Shown: positions 6,003-50,095, counted from the stretch's first letter. The stretch is DNA of 64,000 bases from Escherichia coli (GCF_051903065.1 NZ_CP178438.1); one strand, 5' to 3'. Numbers and translations are program-made. Notes: a model not told the origin generated them from the sequence alone.

Positions 6003-6177
6003 AACCTTTCCCGTCATCAGTAAAAAGTGTGACCCGGTTCACGTAGCGATAGTTTTTACTTATCACTAACTGATTTTTCACAGTTTTAACCGTTCATAAA
6101 TTACCCTGACACAATCATCTGCATTAAAGTAGATGCCAGTTTCTTTGGTCTGATAAATAACGGTTATCGGTGGCGTC

Positions 6178-7086
6178 ATGGCTTTTCAGGTAAAAATTCA
6201 TCAAATTCGGGCTTTTGTTGAAGTGGCTCGTCAGGGCAGCATTCGCGGAGCGAGCCGAATGTTGAATATGTCGCAACCGGCACTGAGTAAATCTATTCAG
6301 GAGCTGGAAGAAGGGTTAGCGGCGCAACTCTTTTTTCGCCGTAGTAAAGGTGTGACGTTAACTGATGCCGGTGAAAGTTTTTATCAGCACGCCAGTCTTA
6401 TTCTTGAAGAGCTGCGCGCAGCCCAAGAGGATATTCGCCAACGACAAGGGCAACTGGCAGGGCAGATTAATATCGGCATGGGGGCCAGTATTTCCCGCAG
6501 TCTGATGCCAGCTGTCATATCTCGTTTTCATCAGCAGCATCCGCAGGTAAAAGTACGCATTATGGAAGGGCAACTGGTGTCGATGATTAATGAATTGCGT
6601 CAGGGAGAATTGGATTTCACCATCAATACCTATTATCAGGGACCGTACGACCACGAATTTACTTTTGAGAAATTACTGGAAAAGCAATTCGCGATCTTTT
6701 GCCGCCCGGGACACCCCGCCATTGGTGCCCGTTCGATCAAACAGTTACTGGATTACAGCTGGACAATGCCGACGCCACACGGCAGCTACTACAAACAGTT
6801 GAGTGAATTGCTTGACGATCAGGCGCAAACGCCACAGGTCGGTGTAGTCTGCGAGACGTTCTCAGCCTGTATCAGTCTGGTGGCAAAAAGCGATTTTCTC
6901 AGCATACTGCCTGAAGAAATGGGCTGCGATCCCTTGCACGGACAGGGGCTGGTGATGTTGCCGGTTAGCGAAATTTTACCGAAAGCGGCCTATTATTTGA
7001 TTCAGCGGCGTGATAGTCGCCAGACACCACTGACCGCGTCATTAATCACGCAATTCCGGCGAGAATGCGGCTATCTGCAAAGTTAA
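6178..7086 (+). CDS. abgR: LysR-type transcriptional regulator of the abg operon
   Basis: 302-aa ORF with N-terminal HTH (ASRMLNMSQPALSKSIQELEE), divergent from abgA. Confidence 0.93.
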   Translation: MAFQVKIHQIRAFVEVARQGSIRGASRMLNMSQPALSKSIQELEEGLAAQLFFRRSKGVTLTDAGESFYQHASLILEELRAAQEDIRQRQGQLAGQINIGMGASISRSLMPAVISRFHQQHPQVKVRIMEGQLVSMINELRQGELDFTINTYYQGPYDHEFTFEKLLEKQFAIFCRPGHPAIGARSIKQLLDYSWTMPTPHGSYYKQLSELLDDQAQTPQVGVVCETFSACISLVAKSDFLSILPEEMGCDPLHGQGLVMLPVSEILPKAAYYLIQRRDSRQTPLTASLITQFRRECGYLQS

Positions 7087-7093
7087 AACTGCA

Positions 7094-7188
7094 TAAAAAA
7101 ATAGAGTCTGTCGACATCCGCCAGACTCTACAGTACACACAGCAGTGCATCCGCGTCTTAAATCCGGCATTGTCTCCTCTGCGCCGGT
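7094..7188 (-). ncRNA. mcaS: McaS (IsrA) small RNA with intrinsic terminator
   Basis: abgR-smrA intergenic; minus-strand hairpin TAGAGTCTG / CAGACTCTA (7102-7130) followed by a U7 tract; TATAAC -10 box just upstream of the predicted 5' end; about 95 nt, matching the known position. Confidence 0.7.
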
Positions 7189-7415
7189 GACTGTGTTATA
7201 ACGGTTTTAACCTTTAGTTGCCAATTTTCTTCAGTGACAGATTTCACGAAAATATAAGTTACATTATTAATATCGTGAATGAATAATCATGCATAAGCAT
7301 TTTGCTTAAAATATCGGCAATATTTGGAACTTATTACTGGAATTTTGGGTAATACGTTGTTGGACCGACCCGGTCTGGTTATCATATCGCGCTCTTAATT
7401 GCGGGAGGATGTAAC

Positions 7416-7979
7416 ATGAACCTTGACGACAAATCGCTGTTTCTTGACGCCATGGAAGATGTCCAGCCGCTGAAACGTGCTACCGATGTCCACTGGCATC
7501 CAACGCGTAACCAACGTGCGCCGCAGCGTATCGACACGCTGCAGCTTGATAATTTCCTCACTACCGGATTTCTCGACATTATCCCGCTAAGTCAGCCGCT
7601 GGAGTTTCGGCGGGAAGGGTTGCAACATGGGGTGCTGGATAAGCTGCGTAGTGGTAAATATCCGCAACAGGCGAGCCTGAATCTTTTGCGCCAGCCGGTG
7701 GAAGAGTGCCGCAAAATGGTGTTCAGTTTCATTCAACAAGCCCTGGCGGATGGTTTGCGTAACGTGCTGATTATTCATGGTAAAGGGCGGGATGATAAAT
7801 CGCATGCCAATATTGTCCGCAGCTATGTGGCGCGCTGGCTGACCGAATTTGATGATGTTCAGGCATATTGCACCGCACTACCGCATCATGGCGGCAGCGG
7901 GGCGTGTTACGTCGCACTACGTAAAACGGCGCAGGCGAAGCAAGAAAACTGGGAGCGCCACGCTAAGCGCAGTCGTTGA
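7416..7979 (+). CDS. smrA: Smr-domain DNA endonuclease
   Basis: 187-aa ORF MNLDDKSLFLDAMEDVQPLK with C-terminal Smr domain (LIIHGKGRDDKS). Confidence 0.9.
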   Translation: MNLDDKSLFLDAMEDVQPLKRATDVHWHPTRNQRAPQRIDTLQLDNFLTTGFLDIIPLSQPLEFRREGLQHGVLDKLRSGKYPQQASLNLLRQPVEECRKMVFSFIQQALADGLRNVLIIHGKGRDDKSHANIVRSYVARWLTEFDDVQAYCTALPHHGGSGACYVALRKTAQAKQENWERHAKRSR

Positions 7980-7999
7980 TCTCGAGACGCATCCGCGGC

Positions 8000-9232
8000 T
8001 TATGCCGCCAGCACGCGGTTGCGTCCATCATTTTTCGCCCGATACAAAGCATCATCAACGCGTTTAAACAGTTCATCGATGCTTTCATTTCCTTCGTGAT
8101 GCGCCACACCAATGCTGACGGTAAAGCGTGGTAAGCCCGAAATACTCACTTTTGCCACGCTTACGCGGATAGTTTCAGCCAGCGAAAGTGCAGTATCCAG
8201 TGGGGTTCTTGGTAGCAATAAGACAAACTCTTCGCCTCCCCAACGAAACACCAAATCGCCTTTGCGAGCGCAACTTTCGAGGGTGCGGGCGAGGGCGCAT
8301 AACACCTCATCACCTTTAGAATGCCCATAGAGATCGTTAATGTGTTTAAAACGATCGGTGTCGATGAGCAACAAGCTGTAATCCTGAGCGATGGCGAGAT
8401 GCTGCATTTGGCCTGGTTCCGTAATGTGATAAAACTGTCGCCGATTCAGTAATCCGGTCATCGCGTCATGGTGAGCAGCATGTTCCAGCTGCTCCTCCAG
8501 CCGTTTTTGCTCAGTAATATCATGCACAATACATAACATGAGCTTGTCGCCATAAATTTCAATCGGTCCGGCATAGGTCTGCACATGACGAGTAGAACCA
8601 TCCGCCAGCCTATGAATAAAATTCAAAGGCTTATGACCACCGGGTAAATGCGAGATTTCATGCATGATAGGCATGACGCGACGCCCGAGCATATTAATTT
8701 CCCATGTATGTTTCTGGCACATCGTTTCATGGTTATAACCATAGAAATTGAGCGCGGCGAGGTTAGCATCGACGATTTGGCCATCTCGTGAGGGGTCAAT
8801 CAACAACATTGGTGCAGAGTTAGTCAGAAAAAAGCGCGCATAAAAACCTTGTTTTTTGCGCTGATAATTTGCCGAGCGACTGGCTTTTAAACCCAGCGTT
8901 GTCGGCGCTTCGATTCCTTCGAAAATAATCACCGGTTCTGCTTCTGTCAGCTTTCGCAAAACAAGCCGACAGCTCAATGCTGTTTCCTCTTCATTGCGCT
9001 GAACGGTGAGGATTTCGATAATATCGTGTTGGTTTTGCAGATCGGAGAGGTATTTCGGCAGTTCTTTTTGTGAGGAGACGGAATAGGGACCGGTTCGTAG
9101 CTGACTAAACGTGAGGTCTTGCATCAACAGTCGCGCCGCGCTATTGGCATAAATTAACTGTTCCTCAAAGGGCGAAACGATCCAGACAGGACTGGTGAGT
9201 AAGTCCAGGGTATTGAAGTTGTGCGTAATCAT
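8000..9232 (-). CDS. dgcM: PAS-GGDEF diguanylate cyclase
   Basis: 410-aa ORF with GGEEF active-site motif (VFRWGGEEFVLLL) and N-terminal PAS regions. Confidence 0.93.
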   Translation of the reverse strand: MITHNFNTLDLLTSPVWIVSPFEEQLIYANSAARLLMQDLTFSQLRTGPYSVSSQKELPKYLSDLQNQHDIIEILTVQRNEEETALSCRLVLRKLTEAEPVIIFEGIEAPTTLGLKASRSANYQRKKQGFYARFFLTNSAPMLLIDPSRDGQIVDANLAALNFYGYNHETMCQKHTWEINMLGRRVMPIMHEISHLPGGHKPLNFIHRLADGSTRHVQTYAGPIEIYGDKLMLCIVHDITEQKRLEEQLEHAAHHDAMTGLLNRRQFYHITEPGQMQHLAIAQDYSLLLIDTDRFKHINDLYGHSKGDEVLCALARTLESCARKGDLVFRWGGEEFVLLLPRTPLDTALSLAETIRVSVAKVSISGLPRFTVSIGVAHHEGNESIDELFKRVDDALYRAKNDGRNRVLAA

Positions 9233-9465
9233 TGAGATCCCATTATTTTTATCAATTTTTGTTGCTATCCGATCGCAATAAAGTCACGTCATATGATCAG
9301 ATAATTCTGATAATGATAGACGCTATTTAACACTTCACACGGTTTGTATACGGAAAAGCATTTTGCTTTTTGTATTCAATTTAGACAGAATTTTATTAAT
9401 CATTTCAGGGTAATGGGGTGATGAGATGTTGCGTAACAGGGCCAGAAGGCTAGACTACAAAATAA

Positions 9466-10470
<1,005 letters not shown>

Positions 10471-10516
10471 CAAAAGCAATTTTTCCGGCTGTCTGTATAC
10501 AAAAACGCCGCAAAGT

Positions 10517-10530
10517 TTGAGCGAAGTCAA
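10517..10530. promoter_or_regulatory. FNR-box-like site TTGAGCGAAGTCAA upstream of fnrS
   Basis: TTGAN-N4-NTCAA half-sites centred about 41 nt upstream of the predicted fnrS 5' end, with a CAATAT -10-like hexamer at 10553-10558. Confidence 0.55.
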
Positions 10531-10565
10531 TAAACTCTCTACCCATTCAGGGCAATATCTCTCTT

Positions 10566-10687
10566 GCAGGTGAATGCAACGTCAAGCGATGGGCGTTGCG
10601 CTCCATATTGTCTTACTTCCTTTTTTGAATTACTGCATAGCACAATTGATTCGTACGACGCCGACTTTGATGAGTCGGCTTTTTTTT
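10566..10687 (+). ncRNA. fnrS: FnrS small RNA (FNR-activated) with intrinsic terminator
   Basis: zntB-dbpA intergenic; canonical terminator GCCGACT-ttgatga-GTCGGC then T8 (10660-10687); C/U-rich single-stranded stretch CTTACTTCCTTTTTT; about 122 nt. Confidence 0.7.
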
Positions 10688-12449: not shown

Positions 12450-13385
12450 TTATTTCACTTCAACCACATTCAGCCGTAACTCATCCAACTGATTTTCATC
12501 TTCTTCTGGCTGCCAGCCCGCCGGTTGTAGTGGGATCTCTTCGCGATCAAACGCCAGATCACCCCCGTTAACCACTTCAGAACCGTGGGTGATGCCTTTG
12601 AAATCGAACAGGTTGGTATCGCACAGATGCGACGGCACCACATTCTGCATCGCGCTGAACATCGTCTCGATACGCCCTGGATAACGTTTATCCCAGTCAC
12701 GCAACATGTCAGCAATCACCTGACGTTGCAGGTTAGGCTGTGAACCGCACAGGTTGCACGGAATAATCGGGAACGCTTTTGCATCGGCAAATCGCTGAAT
12801 ATCTTTCTCGCGGCAGTAGGCCAGCGGACGAATAACGATATGTTTGCCATCATCGCTCATCAGTTTCGGAGGCATACCTTTCATCTTGCCGCCGTAGAAC
12901 ATATTTAAGAACAACGTTTGCAGGATATCGTCACGATGGTGGCCCAACGCGATCTTCGTCGCCCCCAGTTCCGTTGCGGTGCGATAAAGGATACCGCGAC
13001 GTAGCCGAGAACACAGTGAGCAAGTGGTTTTGCCCTCTGGAATCTTCTCTTTCACGATACCGTAAGTGTTCTCTTCAACAATCTTGTACTCAACGCCCAG
13101 CTTTTCAAGATACTCGGGCAGAACGTGTTCCGGGAAGCCCGGTTGCTTTTGATCGAGGTTAACAGCCACCAGCGAAAAATTGATTGGCGCGCTTTGCTGC
13201 AAATTGCGCAGAATCTCCAGCATGGTATAGCTGTCTTTACCCCCGGAGAGGCAAACCATGATGCGATCGCCTTCTTCAATCATATTGAAGTCAGCAATGG
13301 CTTCGCCCACGTTACGACGCAGGCGTTTTTGTAATTTGTTCAGATTGTATTGTTCTTTCTTGCTAATTTCTTGATTTTGCGACAT
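12450..13385 (-). CDS. ttcA: tRNA 2-thiocytidine(32) synthetase
   Basis: 311-aa ORF with PP-loop SGGKDS and CxxC pairs (CSLCSR, CNLCGS). Confidence 0.93.
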
Positions 13386-13524
13386 TTAAAAGCGACTCAA
13401 TTCGTTATATGGCATCAGAAGAGTATGCGTCATGCCGGAACGCCCAGCATAAGAAATCTGATATAAAAACTGTGGCGTGTATGGTACGGATTAGAGGGGA
13501 AAATGTCAGCACATTTGCGAAATG

Positions 13525-13553
13525 AATCAAAAAGCCCGCAGCAATGTGCGGGC
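13525..13553 (-). terminator. intrinsic terminator downstream of uspF
   Basis: Minus-strand hairpin GCCCGCA-cattgc-TGCGGGC followed by a T-rich run (TTTTTGATTCATTT). Confidence 0.55.
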
Positions 13554-13560
13554 GTTAGTG

Positions 13561-14076
<516 letters not shown>

Positions 14077-15269: not shown

Positions 15270-15496
15270 TGAATAAATCCTTTAGTTATTTTATTTGCCT
15301 TTTATCCCCATTTCGGGGAGTGAAAACATCCTAAAGGAGAAGTTCAGTTAGCCGATAAATATCATTTGTTACGCCTTAAGTAAAACCTTAATCAAATAAT
15401 TCCTCTGAAATGATAATAAGTCTGGTGAATGTATCGAAGATAATACATACAAAATAAAAATTATACTTTTAATTTTCTATACGTTATTCTGCGCGG

Positions 15497-15606
15497 GTTA
15501 TATGCCTTTATTGTCACAGATTTTATTTTTTGTTGGGCCATTGCATTGCCACTGATTTTCCAACATATAAAAAGACAAGCCCGAACAGTCGTCCGGGCTT
15601 TTTTTT
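15497..15606 (+). ncRNA. micC: MicC small RNA (ompC regulator) with intrinsic terminator
   Basis: ompN-pfo intergenic; begins GTTATATGCCTTTATTGTCACAGATTTTATTTT and ends with hairpin GCCCG-aacagtcgtc-CGGGC plus T8 (15579-15606); about 110 nt, divergent from ompN. Confidence 0.85.
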
Positions 15607-15634
15607 AGAATTGGATAATCCTTATCCAGAGCAT

Positions 15635-18600
15635 TTAATCGGTGTTGCTTTTTTCCGCTTTTCCGGCCATTTGTGCCAGGAAGTCATAGCGTTTTTGCAA
15701 ATCAGCTGCAGCATCTTTCCATAACTGTTCTGCCACTTCTGGCTGCTGCGAATTCAGACGACGGAAACGTTGCTCGTGAAGTAACGTTTCTTCCAGTGCT
15801 TCTGACGGCGGGCGTGAATCCAGCGCCAGCGGCAGTTTGCCTTCATCGGCACGACGCGGATCGAAGCGATATAGCGGCCAGAAGCCGGTAGCTGTGAGTT
15901 GGCGCATCTGGTCATGGCTGAGTGCCAGATCGTAACCATGCTCTTCACACGGGCTATAAGCAATGATCAGCGATGGTCCCGGATACGCTTCCGCTTCCTG
16001 AATCGCTTTCACCGTCTGGTTCAGTTGCGCGCCGAGAGAAATCTGCGCCACATAAACATGACCGTACATCATCATACTGACGCCAAGATCTTTACGCGCT
16101 TTACGTTTGCCGTGCTCGCCAAATTTAGTTACTGCACCCAGCGGTGTCGCTTTCGACGCCTGACCACCGGTGTTGGAATAGCATTGCGTATCCAGCACCA
16201 GAATGTTGACGTTTTCCGTCAAACTCAATACATGATCCAGACCGCCAAAGCCGATATCGTAAGCCCAGCCGTCGCCACCAATCAGCCAGATTGATTTTTC
16301 TACCAGTGCATCTGCGTCACGCAGCAGTTCATGTGCTTCGGCAACATCGTTGAGTTGCTGGCGTAAAGCTGCAACCTGATCACGACGAACCTCTGGCGTA
16401 GCGTCTGATTTCAACGCCGTCAGTAATTCCGCCGGGATTTTATCGGCAAATTGATCCAGCAGACGCAGCACGCGGACACGGTGTTGATCGACCGTCAGGC
16501 GGAAACCCAGGCCAAATTCGGCGTTATCTTCAAACAGCGAGTTCGCCCATGCCGGCCCGCGACCGTTGGCATCGGTAGTATACGGTGTAGAGGGCAGGTT
16601 ACCGCCATAAATTGAAGAACAGCCAGTGGCGTTAGCGATCAACATCCGGTCGCCATAGAGCTGAGTCAGCAATTTAATATACGGTGTCTCGCCACAACCG
16701 GAGCAAGCACCGGAATATTCAAACAGCGGTGTAATCAGCTGCGATGTACGAATATCAATACGTTCCAGTTTGCTACGGTCGATTTCTGGCAGGTTGAGGA
16801 AGAAATCGTAATTGATTTTCTCTTCTTCGACATGTTCCAGGCGCGACATCATATTGATGGCTTTAATCTCTGGATTCTGACGGTCTTTCGCCGGGCAAAC
16901 TTCGACGCACAGGTTACAACCGGTGCAATCTTCCGGAGCCACCTGCAAGACATATTTCTGCCCGCGCATATCACGCGATTTCACATCCAGCGAATGCAGG
17001 CTGGCAGGGGCGTTTTCCATCGCTTCAGGCGGCACCACTTTTGCGCGAATAGCTGAGTGTGGGCAAGCGGCAACGCAGTGGTTACATTGGGTACAGAGTT
17101 CCTCTTTCCAGATGGGGATCTCTTCGGCGATATTGCGTTTTTCCCAGCGTGTAGTGCCCATCGGCCAGGTGCCGTCTGGCGGCAGCGCCGAAACGGGGAG
17201 GGCATCACCAAGCCCGGCGAGCATCGCAGCGGTTACGGTTTTCACGAAATCAGGGGCGGCATCGGAAACCACAGGCGGTCGATTGGCGCTGTGCGGATTA
17301 ACCGGCTGCAACGGAACTTCTTCCACGGATTCACGCGCCAGCGCCAGAGCCTGCCAGTTGCGCTCCACCAGATCCTGACCTTTGCTACTGTAACTTTTGG
17401 CAATCGCACCCTGCAATTCTGCGAGGGCGCTATCGCCAGGCAGAATTTGCGTCAGATGGAAAAAAGCCATCTGCATGACGGTATTAATACGGGCCGCCAG
17501 GCCACATTCGCGGGCGATTTTCGCTGCGTTAATCACATAGAAGCGCGCTTTTTTCTGGTTTAGCACGGCCTGAACTTCCTGCGGCAAGCGCGACCACACT
17601 TCATCTGCGCTGTACGGCGTGTTGAGCAGGAAAATGCCGCCAGGTTTTAAACGCTCAGCCATCTGATATTTATCGATAAACTGCAACTGGTGGCAGCCAA
17701 CAAAATCAGCCTGGGAAATGAGATAAGCGGAACGAATCGGCTGTTCGCTCACGCGAAGGTGAGAAACCGTCAGGCCGCCCGCCTTTTTGGAGTCGTAAAC
17801 AAAATAGCCCTGTGCGTACCACGGCGTGGAATTACCGATAATCTTGATATTGTTTTTGGTCGCGGAAACGCTGCCATCACTACCAAGGCCATAAAACAAG
17901 GCTTCCAGTTTCGCCGAGTTTGGCAGGGTGTTTTCCGGCAACGGCAGTGACAGATTGGTCACATCATCGTAAATACCAACCGTAAAGCGCGCTTTCGGTT
18001 TAGCCGCGTTGAGCTCGGCAAATACCGCCAGTACACAGTCCGGGCCAAATTCTTTGGATGAAAGACCATAGCGCCCACCAATGACACGGGGCAGAGTTTC
18101 GCGCTCGCCATTATTAAAGGCTTCTGCCAGTGCGGTCATTACATCCAGATAGAGCGGTTCTGCCTGGGCACCGGGTTCTTTGGTTCTGTCCAGTACCGCC
18201 ACGCTGCGTACGGATCCCGGCAGAGCTTGCAGCAAGTGTTTGGCGGAGAAGGGACGGTACAGGCGAACTTTCAGCACGCCAACTTTTTCGCCACGGGTTA
18301 GCAATTCATCAACCACTTCTTCACAGGTGCCAATGGCAGAGCCCATCAGGATAATCACCCGTTCCGCTTGCGGATGCCCGTAATATTCAAACGGCTGATA
18401 CTGACGACCTGTCGCGGCAGAGAAATCATTCATCGCCTGTTCAACATGGTCATAGACCGCGTTGTACCATGGGTTGGTGGCTTCGCGAGACTGGAAATAA
18501 GTGTCAGGATTGGCTGACGTACCGCGGATCACCGGATGTTCCGGGTTGAGCGCCCGGGCGCGATGAGCATCAATTTCGGCCTGCGGCATGAGATCAAGAA

Positions 18601-19159
18601 TAGTGTCATCGGCCAGCGGGACAATTTTATTGATTTCGTGGGACGTACGGAAACCATCAAAGAAATGAATAAATGGCACGCGGCTTTTCAGCGTCGCGAT
18701 GTGCGAAATGAGAGCAAAGTCTTGCGCTTCCTGGACGTTTGCCGCACACAACATCGCGCAACCCGTCTGGCGCACCGCCATGACGTCGGAATGATCGCCA
18801 AAAATAGAGAGTGCATGTGTGGCAACGGTACGTGCCGCTACATGCAGGACAAACGGTGTGAGTTCGCCTGCCAGTTTGTACAGCGTCGGGATCATCAGCA
18901 GCAAACCCTGCGATGACGTAAACGATGTTGAAAGGGCACCCGTCTGCAAAGCGCCATGCACGGTAGCGATAGCACCCGCTTCCGACTGCATTTCAACCAC
19001 GCGTGGTGTGTCTCCCCAAACGTTCTTCAAGCCGTTTCCGGCCCAGGCATCAGCCTGTTCTGCCATCGTGGAACTGGGGGTAATAGGGTAGATGGCGATA
19101 ACTTCACTGGTGCGAAACGCCACCGAAGCAACCGCGCCATTACCGTCAATAGTAATCAT
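15635..19159 (-). CDS. pfo: pyruvate:flavodoxin oxidoreductase
   Basis: 1174-aa ORF MITIDGNGAVASVAFRTSEVIAIYPITPSS with two ferredoxin-type Cys clusters (CTQCNHCVAACP, CTGCNLCVEVCP) and a TPP-binding region. Confidence 0.95.
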   Translation of the reverse strand: MITIDGNGAVASVAFRTSEVIAIYPITPSSTMAEQADAWAGNGLKNVWGDTPRVVEMQSEAGAIATVHGALQTGALSTSFTSSQGLLLMIPTLYKLAGELTPFVLHVAARTVATHALSIFGDHSDVMAVRQTGCAMLCAANVQEAQDFALISHIATLKSRVPFIHFFDGFRTSHEINKIVPLADDTILDLMPQAEIDAHRARALNPEHPVIRGTSANPDTYFQSREATNPWYNAVYDHVEQAMNDFSAATGRQYQPFEYYGHPQAERVIILMGSAIGTCEEVVDELLTRGEKVGVLKVRLYRPFSAKHLLQALPGSVRSVAVLDRTKEPGAQAEPLYLDVMTALAEAFNNGERETLPRVIGGRYGLSSKEFGPDCVLAVFAELNAAKPKARFTVGIYDDVTNLSLPLPENTLPNSAKLEALFYGLGSDGSVSATKNNIKIIGNSTPWYAQGYFVYDSKKAGGLTVSHLRVSEQPIRSAYLISQADFVGCHQLQFIDKYQMAERLKPGGIFLLNTPYSADEVWSRLPQEVQAVLNQKKARFYVINAAKIARECGLAARINTVMQMAFFHLTQILPGDSALAELQGAIAKSYSSKGQDLVERNWQALALARESVEEVPLQPVNPHSANRPPVVSDAAPDFVKTVTAAMLAGLGDALPVSALPPDGTWPMGTTRWEKRNIAEEIPIWKEELCTQCNHCVAACPHSAIRAKVVPPEAMENAPASLHSLDVKSRDMRGQKYVLQVAPEDCTGCNLCVEVCPAKDRQNPEIKAINMMSRLEHVEEEKINYDFFLNLPEIDRSKLERIDIRTSQLITPLFEYSGACSGCGETPYIKLLTQLYGDRMLIANATGCSSIYGGNLPSTPYTTDANGRGPAWANSLFEDNAEFGLGFRLTVDQHRVRVLRLLDQFADKIPAELLTALKSDATPEVRRDQVAALRQQLNDVAEAHELLRDADALVEKSIWLIGGDGWAYDIGFGGLDHVLSLTENVNILVLDTQCYSNTGGQASKATPLGAVTKFGEHGKRKARKDLGVSMMMYGHVYVAQISLGAQLNQTVKAIQEAEAYPGPSLIIAYSPCEEHGYDLALSHDQMRQLTATGFWPLYRFDPRRADEGKLPLALDSRPPSEALEETLLHEQRFRRLNSQQPEVAEQLWKDAAADLQKRYDFLAQMAGKAEKSNTD

Positions 19160-19432
19160 ATGACACCCTTACATTGCGCAAATGAGGGGCGCACGAAATT
19201 GCTGCGCGCCCAGTAGTAATCCTTCAATTTTAGCAAATGGCTTTCTTCTGCATTTTCGCTTTTGTGTCCCCCACATCAGCGTAATGAATGTTTTGATCAA
19301 ACAGAGGGCAAAAAAATAGCCATAAAAAAGTAAAAATGCGGGGCAACGCGCAGGACAGCTCTCGACGCCGCCCTCTGCGCTGCCTATTATTTATGGCGGT
19401 GTCGTTTGGCTTGAAGATCAGAGGAAGAAGAG

Positions 19433-19699
19433 ATGCGAGCAGCGTTTTGGGTAGGGTGTGCCGCTTTATTGTTGTCGGCGTGTAGTAGTGAGCCTGTTCA
19501 GCAGGCGACTGCGGCGCACGTAGCGCCAGGTTTAAAAGCGTCGATGTCCAGTAGTGGAGAAGCAAATTGTGCAATGATCGGCGGTTCGCTTTCTGTTGCC
19601 CGTCAACTGGATGGTACGGCGATTGGGATGTGTGCATTACCCAACGGCAAACGCTGTAGCGAACAGTCACTTGCCGCCGGGAGCTGTGGCAGCTATTAA
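19433..19699 (+). CDS. ydbJ: small lipoprotein of unknown function
   Basis: 88-aa ORF with lipobox (LLLSACSS). Confidence 0.8.
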   Translation: MRAAFWVGCAALLLSACSSEPVQQATAAHVAPGLKASMSSSGEANCAMIGGSLSVARQLDGTAIGMCALPNGKRCSEQSLAAGSCGSY

Positions 19700-20118
19700 T
19701 TCATTAAATCCGCCAGCTTATAAGTTAATGTCTGTTTCGCGGTCGCCAGCGTTAACTGGTTCGCGGTCAGATCCACTTGTGCACCTTCTTTCAGCATTTC
19801 GCTAATGGTGTTATCGAGTTCATTAAGCTGCGGGTTAGCGCACATCATACGGGTCATTGCTAGCCCTTTGGCTGTCAGTTCACCATTAGACAGTTTGCCT
19901 TCACCGCTAAAGCGGTTACACATGCTGCCGGAAATCATCATTTTTTCACCAAAGCTGATTTCTGGCGGATTTTTATCGCTGGTCACGGGCTTACCGTTTA
20001 CGCTTTCCAGCACAAAGCGATGATGCTGTAGCTGTTCTGGCGTAACAGCAATTTTGTCGTTACTTACACATCCCGCCATCAGCAGGCTTAGCGCAACAAA
20101 CGCGGCTACTTTCTTCAT
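19696..20118 (-). CDS. hslJ: heat-inducible lipoprotein HslJ (META domain)
   Basis: ORF 19696-20130 trimmed to MKKVAAFVALSLLMAGCVSN (140 aa), lipobox LMAGC. Confidence 0.88.
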   Translation of the reverse strand: MKKVAAFVALSLLMAGCVSNDKIAVTPEQLQHHRFVLESVNGKPVTSDKNPPEISFGEKMMISGSMCNRFSGEGKLSNGELTAKGLAMTRMMCANPQLNELDNTISEMLKEGAQVDLTANQLTLATAKQTLTYKLADLMN

Positions 20119-49068: not shown

Positions 49069-49132
49069 AAGAAAACGCCTGTACTAAAACCGACCCGTGG
49101 TACAGGCGAAGAATACGGGTCTACATCGGAAG
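49069..49132 (-). ncRNA. rydC: RydC small RNA (pseudoknotted, Hfq-dependent)
   Basis: cybB-ydcA intergenic; minus strand CUUCCGAUGUAGACCCGUAUUCUUCGCCUGUACCACGGGUCGGUUUUAGUACAGGCGUUUUCUU, 64 nt ending in a U-rich tail; 8-bp inverted repeat GCCTGTAC / GTACAGGC. Confidence 0.55.
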
Positions 49133-49547: not shown

Positions 49548-49734
<187 letters not shown>

Positions 49735-49755
<21 letters not shown>

Positions 49756-49810
49756 TCGTTGGCCTCGGTTGATAGAAATATCGGTCGGGGCCTTCGTCTT
49801 TCTGATTCCC
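49735..49810 (+). ncRNA. sokB: sokB antisense RNA (approximate position)
   Basis: Inferred only from hok/sok architecture (antisense to the mokB start region); boundaries not resolved. Confidence 0.3.
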
Positions 49811-50095
49811 GGTTAGCCTGAAAACAGAAAGTCTCAGGCACCCGTGAGCATCCTATGTGGTTTCCTTAGGGACGAAAATAATCACCTGACGAAATTGCGT
49901 GCTGTTTTCCAGAATTTTTCGTCATTCGGGTTAGCCAGTTTAACCATTCGTTACTCTCTTCATTCCAATGGCATTAATCTTCTCTGCAATAATTGTTGTA
50001 AAAATGTGACGCAAAGAGGCTTTTAGTCGTAAGTAATTACCGTCAAATGCCGATGACTTTCTATCAGGAGTAAACCTGGACGAGAGACAACGGTA

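Follow-up and report, generated by a model that had tools for sequence, protein, structure and literature searches.

On the Escherichia coli chromosome studied here, mcaS, which encodes the small RNA McaS, and dgcM, which encodes the diguanylate cyclase DgcM, lie about 0.8 kb apart on the − strand, with smrA on the + strand between them. Since both products act on csgD, the question that arises is whether their closeness reflects shared control or the history of this stretch of chromosome. The two genes, their targets, their regulators and their map positions are already known, being part of the textbook csgD network and of every K-12 annotation; the literature searched contained no discussion of the mcaS-dgcM adjacency, either for or against a significance. 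The explanation favored here, at a probability of roughly 0.88, is that mcaS and dgcM are independently transcribed, antagonistic inputs to csgD that are neighbors by descent. The identities, geometry, promoters, distribution, junctions and pairing on which this explanation draws come from the present analysis, and the regulators and molecular actions are taken from the literature.

Identity and layout of the locus

The window, that is, the whole 64,000-nt stretch of DNA that was analyzed, is E. coli chromosome collinear with the K-12 region abgR-mcaS-smrA-dgcM-zntB. Strain 23CRST027 is 100% identical over 6100-10600, a segment matched at ≥95% identity in 5,394 of 5,426 complete E. coli genomes. 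The gene order, as given by RefSeq for the identical record and for K-12, is abgT-abgB-abgA / abgR / (mcaS) / smrA / dgcM / ynaN-zntB / (fnrS) / ynaL-dbpA. For abgR-mcaS-smrA-dgcM (b1339-b4426-b1340-b1341 in K-12 MG1655) order, orientation and spacing are the same as in K-12, and the 2.46-kb region differs from it by point substitutions only (99% identity, zero indels); the Rac prophage, which follows ttcA in K-12, is absent from this strain. The features referred to below are these:

6178..7086, + strand: abgR (NCBIfam PRK09791, 631.8 bits; RefSeq annotation)
7095..7188, − strand: mcaS (isrA/IS061), a 94-nt RNA that binds Hfq and CsrA, 100% identical to K-12 ncRNA b4426
7195-7200, − strand: mcaS −10 element TATAAC, read from the sequence, fitting a 5′ end at 7188
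7219-7224, − strand: mcaS −35 element TTGGCA, with an 18-nt spacer to the −10
7233..7248, no strand assigned: CRP-like palindrome aGTGAcagattTCACg, with 2 mismatches to TGTGA-N6-TCACA
7416..7979, + strand: smrA (ydaL) (Pfam Smr; NCBIfam endonuc_SmrA, 252.8 bits)
8000..9232, − strand: dgcM (ydaM), 410 aa (Pfam GGDEF and PAS; RefSeq name in 100%-identical genomes)
9196..9230, − strand: validated RprA site on dgcM mRNA, +3 to +37 (PMC3465796)
9233..9319, − strand: dgcM 5′UTR and promoter, with a σS-like extended −10
9312-9319, − strand: the σS-like extended −10 of dgcM, CTATCATT, read from the sequence

The interval 7094-9232 proposed by the first-pass annotation is correct save that its left end is off by one base (mcaS occupies 7095-7188), and the presence of mcaS and dgcM on the two flanks of smrA is borne out by Rfam, by Pfam and NCBIfam and by identity to K-12. 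Rfam RF00115 (McaS/IsrA; gathering score 42) matches 7093-7188 on the − strand over the full model (1-96/96) with 118.4 bits and E = 1.9e-21. McaS is predicted to fold into a 5′ stem-loop, the loop of which contains GGA, and a terminator hairpin, after which comes U7. Across six Escherichia alleles nt ~26-96 are nearly invariant, the csgD-pairing core AUGCACUGCUGUGUGUAC is wholly so, and the GGA of the 5′ loop is kept despite divergence of the loop itself; further GGA motifs lie centrally and within the loop of the terminator. Binding of CsrA by McaS requires GGA motifs (PMC4824073).

DgcM is identical to K-12 b1341 at 404 of 410 residues (98.5%), over its full length and at the syntenic position, with all six substitutions in the N-terminal half (PAS region). 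Matches to PAS_9, PAS_4 and PAS_8 and a GGDEF domain at residues 253-406 (Pfam, 2.2e-46) give a PAS-PAS-GGDEF layout in which the active site GGEEF and, five residues upstream, the RxxD I-site RKGD are intact (RKGDLVFRWGGEEF). By analogy with K-12, this DgcM is assumed to interact with PdeR and MlrA and to co-activate csgD. SmrA, an Smr-domain DNA endonuclease, is identical to its K-12 counterpart at 187/187 residues, and we know of no role for it in biofilm formation.

As for geometry, smrA is divergent from mcaS, across a 227-bp spacer, and convergent with dgcM, from which it is separated by a 20-bp gap. Members of an operon would be co-directional and contiguous, and here smrA (+) separates mcaS (−) from dgcM (−). 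On its other side mcaS is convergent with the LysR-family regulator gene abgR, 8 nt separating abgR from the 3′ end of mcaS. A role for abgR as a dedicated regulator of mcaS, in the manner of oxyR-oxyS, was considered and rejected, both on this convergent rather than divergent orientation and on the absence of abgR beside mcaS in E. whittamii, E. albertii and B2-type E. coli.

Probable separate control of two antagonistic inputs

Promoter elements of mcaS and dgcM were assigned by hand against published 5′ ends because a consensus promoter and terminator scan was uninformative: its matches were no more frequent than in shuffles, it was stricter than the mcaS promoter needs, and it picked up neither the mcaS nor the dgcM promoter, nor a terminator between smrA and dgcM. 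Read in this way, mcaS appears to have its own promoter and a Rho-independent terminator, consistent with a discrete RNA of ~95 nt. Its core promoter is identical in K-12 and conserved in E. whittamii, E. albertii, a divergent Escherichia lineage and the B2-type allele. The start of dgcM transcription is predicted at 9306-9307, no more than 1 nt away from the start implied by the 75-nt 5′UTR published for ydaM (PMC4152358). The two promoters thus placed are ~2.1 kb from each other and differ in kind, and a promoter or regulator site common to both genes was not found, the CRP-like site being at mcaS only and the σS-like −10 at dgcM only. No canonical terminator was found 3′ of dgcM on the − strand by the consensus scan, and some read-through from dgcM towards mcaS could occur.

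The CRP-like palindrome is centered at −52.5 from the mcaS 5′ end, an atypical position. Sites of this kind show no enrichment in the window (23 against 28 expected), and support for the site is therefore drawn from its conservation across Escherichia and from the published CRP dependence of McaS, which together suggest that it acts on mcaS. Upstream of dgcM, in 9233-9486, no CRP-like site with ≤2 mismatches is present.

The published regulation of the two genes points the same way. McaS has cAMP-CRP as its activator, is indirectly under negative RpoS control and represses csgD (PMC4152358; PMC3634460; PMC8313858), and its level falls in crp mutants according to transcriptome mining (PMC8313858); these statements on CRP and RpoS rest on reviews plus one data-mining study. 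McaS binds the csgD 5′UTR, leading to decay of csgD mRNA, and it also activates flhDC and sequesters CsrA (PMC4152358; PMC3634460). DgcM is RpoS-dependent and makes c-di-GMP; once freed from PdeR, it serves MlrA as a direct co-activator at the promoter of csgD (PMC5052742), and deletion of dgcM nearly abolishes curli expression (PMC12713406). The earlier statement that both act on the curli/csgD circuit thus agrees with the literature, in that McaS lowers csgD mRNA and DgcM is needed for csgD transcription. They push csgD in opposite directions, however, their published regulators differ, and RpoS acts on each with the opposite sign.

Under the favored explanation, McaS would be made from its own σ70-type promoter beside the CRP-like site and induced under carbon limitation, and its invariant 16-18-nt core would pair with the csgD 5′UTR and bring about cleavage of csgD mRNA, with activation of flhDC and titration of CsrA as additional actions. 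DgcM would be expressed from its own σS-type promoter, 2.1 kb away and beyond the oppositely oriented smrA; it would produce c-di-GMP and, after release by PdeR, directly support MlrA as its co-activator at the promoter of csgD.

An alternative is that mcaS, smrA and dgcM constitute a co-regulated biofilm module, in which the closeness of the genes would help to coordinate their expression in stationary phase. It would accommodate the action of both products on csgD, the retention of mcaS and dgcM near each other throughout Escherichia, and the expression of both after exponential growth (PMC4152358). Since both RNAs accumulate post-exponentially, though, crude expression profiles of McaS and dgcM may correlate even under independent control. 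Against such a module stand the non-contiguity of mcaS and dgcM, between which smrA runs on the opposite strand, their separate and dissimilar promoters, of which that of dgcM is without a CRP-like site, and the requirement of DgcM for RpoS when the effect of RpoS on McaS is negative. Together with the distribution described below, these points make a co-regulated module highly improbable.

Search for pairing of McaS with dgcM mRNA

Repression of dgcM by McaS would create a feed-forward loop on csgD like that of RprA, and the linkage of the two genes would then be selected rather than historical. The model for such a loop is RprA, a csgD-repressing small RNA that, like McaS, has a UGUGUGUA core and that acts on both ydaM and csgD. 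Its site on csgD overlaps that of McaS (PMC3634460; PMC3465796), and its pairing with ydaM (dgcM) mRNA at +3 to +37 has been proven by compensatory mutations (PMC3465796). McaS and RprA have the core CUGUGUGUA in common. Unlike mcaS, rprA is not linked to dgcM.

Pairing was assessed with a local-duplex window scan against dinucleotide shuffles, with two positive controls; global duplex folding of McaS against mRNAs was dropped, as it gave unrealistically long duplexes and discriminated poorly. The scan gave the following:

McaS with csgD 5′UTR (positive control): 16-bp perfect duplex, −30.1 kcal/mol, z = −6.3
RprA with dgcM (positive control): best local duplex located at the published site, the start codon, z = −2.7
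McaS with dgcM (−75 to +60): −14.5 kcal/mol, shuffle mean −15.9, z = +0.6
McaS with smrA: best local duplex −18.9 kcal/mol, z = −0.5

Both positive controls score, whereas the predicted pairing of McaS with dgcM mRNA over −75 to +60 is at background level, its best duplex being no better than those of shuffles. At the RprA site itself the McaS core can form 8 bp, but the duplex is weak, at −11.0 kcal/mol vs −17.3 for RprA. Published data are in line with this result. The small RNAs known to target ydaM are RprA and OmrA/B, and McaS is not named among them (PMC4152358). In RIL-seq of EPEC, csgD-McaS chimeras are abundant among the interactions listed, and the dgcM region (labeled zntB.ydaL.IGR) has a single partner among those listed, RprA (PMC8550237); this evidence against cross-talk between McaS and dgcM is supportive rather than conclusive. 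Thus, RprA pairs with dgcM mRNA, and McaS shows pairing neither above background nor in the listed RIL-seq chimeras. The common core, and the 8 bp that McaS can form where RprA binds ydaM, speak for direct pairing of McaS with the dgcM translation-initiation region through UGUGUGUA and an RprA-like feed-forward repression of csgD; weighed against the duplex energies, the shuffles and the published partners of dgcM, such pairing is extremely unlikely. The same holds for its weaker form, in which McaS would use the UGUGUGUA seed to repress dgcM translation slightly and selection would maintain the linkage of the two antagonists, and to which we attach scant credence.

Descent, chance and later insertions

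The distribution of the genes was examined in a scan for DgcM with one genome per species. Full-length orthologues were found in Escherichia (E. coli, E. whittamii, a divergent lineage with 89% identity, and E. albertii), in ~10 Citrobacter or Citrobacter-like genomes (74-76% identity) and in a handful of more distant Enterobacteriaceae (60-69% identity). A smrA-dgcM pair in convergent orientation occurs in the Escherichia loci and in nine loci of Citrobacter type. Of the Escherichia loci outside E. coli, three reach far enough, and in each of them McaS adjoins smrA; with Rfam, no McaS match was found within 8 kb in any of the nine Citrobacter-type loci (0/9), nor in the more distant loci. The gene order in these species is dgcM, smrA, [mcaS], ogt, fnr, uspE. 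Alignments show a block of ~250 nt, made up of upstream sequence, CRP-like site, promoter, RNA and terminator, that Escherichia has and the 200-240-nt smrA-ogt spacer of Citrobacter lacks. A search of that spacer for a proto-mcaS was fruitless, with nothing aligned and no Rfam match.

As the cassette is found in Escherichia only and the smrA-dgcM pair also in Citrobacter, the pair is the older arrangement and mcaS a genus-specific addition. To our knowledge McaS is restricted to Escherichia and Shigella, which the cassette picture fits. In the favored explanation, the smrA-dgcM pair, common to Escherichia and Citrobacter, would have been in place when the mcaS cassette of ~250 nt arose in the ogt-smrA spacer within the Escherichia lineage, and later insertions would have altered the spacing with both genes kept, abgRABT entering on one side and araC/hlyD/MFS genes or an integrative island on the other.

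How far the resulting closeness calls for an explanation depends on how many regulators csgD has. Reviewed inputs include three transcription-factor modules, at least 7-8 small RNAs and several c-di-GMP enzymes (PMC4152358). For 20-40 regulators placed randomly on 4.64 Mb, one or more pairs would fall within 2.2 kb with a probability of 0.16-0.52, the total of 20-40 being partly from general knowledge and partly from reviews. With such a probability the closeness of mcaS and dgcM is unsurprising. There are neighboring pairs of regulator and small RNA, such as oxyR-oxyS, gcvA-gcvB and sgrR-sgrS, in which neighborhood does reflect regulation, and the present case resembles them in that a small-RNA gene lies near the gene of a regulatory protein of the same pathway. 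In those pairs, however, a divergent DNA-binding regulator activates the small RNA directly, whereas DgcM does not regulate mcaS as a DNA-binding protein, and smrA lies in between.

Within E. coli, mcaS is present in 5,304 and smrA-dgcM in 5,373 of the 5,426 complete genomes. The contiguous mcaS-smrA junction (window 7150-7470) is found in 3,849 of them (71%), and in ~1,455 (27%) only the mcaS half is found, with an AraC-family gene adjoining. In NZ_CP019000, an example of this AraC type, a deletion has removed abgR, abgA, abgB and the greater part of abgT, and mcaS is retained with its promoter cassette 3.7 kb from smrA, the 3.7-kb insert carrying an araC-family gene, an hlyD-family gene and a frameshifted DHA2 MFS gene. 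In NZ_LR130532, an integrase-bearing element of ~11 kb is inserted ~75-90 nt upstream of the mcaS start. The mcaS-dgcM distance in the Escherichia examined varies from 0.8 to 4.3 to 12 kb, always in the same region. Almost all E. coli carry both genes, the spacing between which appears unconstrained, and the control region moves with mcaS.

These junctions also bear on the proposal that the functional pair is not mcaS-dgcM, but mcaS-smrA, two divergent genes sharing a 227-bp control region and its CRP-like site. The divergent orientation, the palindrome between the genes and the occurrence of the arrangement in 71% of E. coli genomes are what such sharing would predict. Yet 175 nt separate the CRP-like site from the start codon of smrA, and in B2-type genomes and in the island-bearing strain the site stays, with the upstream sequence, beside mcaS, while smrA retains only ~10 nt of the common upstream sequence. 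In other Escherichia the spacer is 456 nt long and unrelated outside the cassette, and smrA of Citrobacter is without such a cassette. We regard a shared mcaS-smrA control region as very unlikely.

For the co-regulated module discussed above, the distribution adds two further difficulties: Citrobacter has smrA-dgcM without mcaS, and unrelated genes intervene over 3.7 kb in ~27% of E. coli, with an 11-kb island in one genome. The claim that proximity marks a co-regulated neighborhood is thus unsupported, given the opposite strand of smrA, the separate and dissimilar promoters, the differing regulators, the antagonism of the two products and an adjacency that is young and often broken. We infer that the linkage of mcaS and dgcM is not under selection; its retention at 0.8-12 kb is compatible with weak selection, but all core genes here do likewise. 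The closeness of two regulators of the same pathway is accordingly not to be read as co-regulation at this locus. What the favored explanation leaves is mcaS as a compact, self-contained and genus-specific cassette, which bears on how young small RNAs arise and persist.

As a separate observation, the ogt-smrA junction in which the cassette appeared has been a repeated site of insertion in E. coli.

Variability of the mcaS-smrA spacer

In E. coli, the spacer between mcaS and smrA is a junction that differs between genomes, and it also holds the candidate CRP site of mcaS.

7189-7415, mcaS-smrA spacer in the window
15833-20011, the same spacer in comparison locus L003
8646-20157, the same spacer in comparison locus L004 (NZ_LR130532)
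8910-19900 of L004, integrative element of ~11 kb, inserted at a point equivalent to window ~7262-7280

In ~27% of complete E. coli genomes the spacer is occupied by an araC-family/hlyD/MFS block, and these same genomes have lost abgR, abgA, abgB, and most of abgT. They keep mcaS as a divergent allele (80-95% identity) in which the 5' stem-loop has been rewritten but the GGA is nevertheless retained. The NZ_LR130532 element is inserted upstream of mcaS, at a distance of ~75-90 nt from its start. It carries genes for a tyrosine integrase and a primase, along with an Icd-like gene and a fusion of a ClpP-like protease with a major capsid protein; by this content the element looks like a phage satellite. 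A repeat containing AATATCGTGA lies at each end of the element, suggesting that the spacer serves as an attachment site.

CRP sites are centered at -41.5 in class II promoters and usually at -61.5 or further in class I promoters. Upstream of mcaS, the conserved CRP-like palindrome (7233-7248) has its center at -52.5, counted from the annotated 5' end, and fits neither arrangement. Either the site works in an unusual manner, or the functional site, or the start, lies elsewhere.

Convergent ends of smrA and dgcM and other loci in the window

smrA and dgcM are convergent, with stop codons 20 nt apart (window 7979-8000). Given this short gap, and as no recognizable terminator was found within it, the two transcripts probably overlap at their 3' ends. 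The tight convergent arrangement is conserved in Citrobacter, ranging from a 4-nt overlap to a gap of ~100 nt (comparison loci L009-L015). Further loci lie in the same window:

211-963, fnr
10566-10683, fnrS, small RNA gene
15494-15614, MicC
49069-49132, RydC
49548-49843, hokB/sok

In Escherichia and Citrobacter alike, the smrA-dgcM region is flanked by fnr and fnrS, the latter encoding an FNR-dependent small RNA. The two are ~9.6 kb apart in the window, and this further proximity of a regulator and a small RNA is probably synteny only. RydC, another small RNA for which repression of csgD is reported, is located ~40 kb from dgcM.

Annotation gaps and strain-specific features

The RefSeq/PGAP annotation of a 100%-identical genome contains no feature for mcaS (window 7093-7188), fnrS, micC, or rydC; all four are annotated only in the K-12 record and go unseen in most E. 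coli genome annotations. In the EPEC E2348/69 annotation used for RIL-seq, dgcM carries no gene name, and RprA-dgcM chimeras were therefore entered under 'zntB.ydaL.IGR' (PMC8550237 supplements), a label under which keyword searches could miss interactions of dgcM.

Elsewhere in the window, uspF directly follows ttcA (12450-13995); the Rac prophage, which follows ttcA in K-12, is absent from this strain. A large pectate-lyase-fold autotransporter gene is interrupted by an IS1A insertion:

24986-31627, split autotransporter gene
28754-29451, IS1A transposase, within the split gene

RefSeq annotates the adjoining ydbD as frameshifted.
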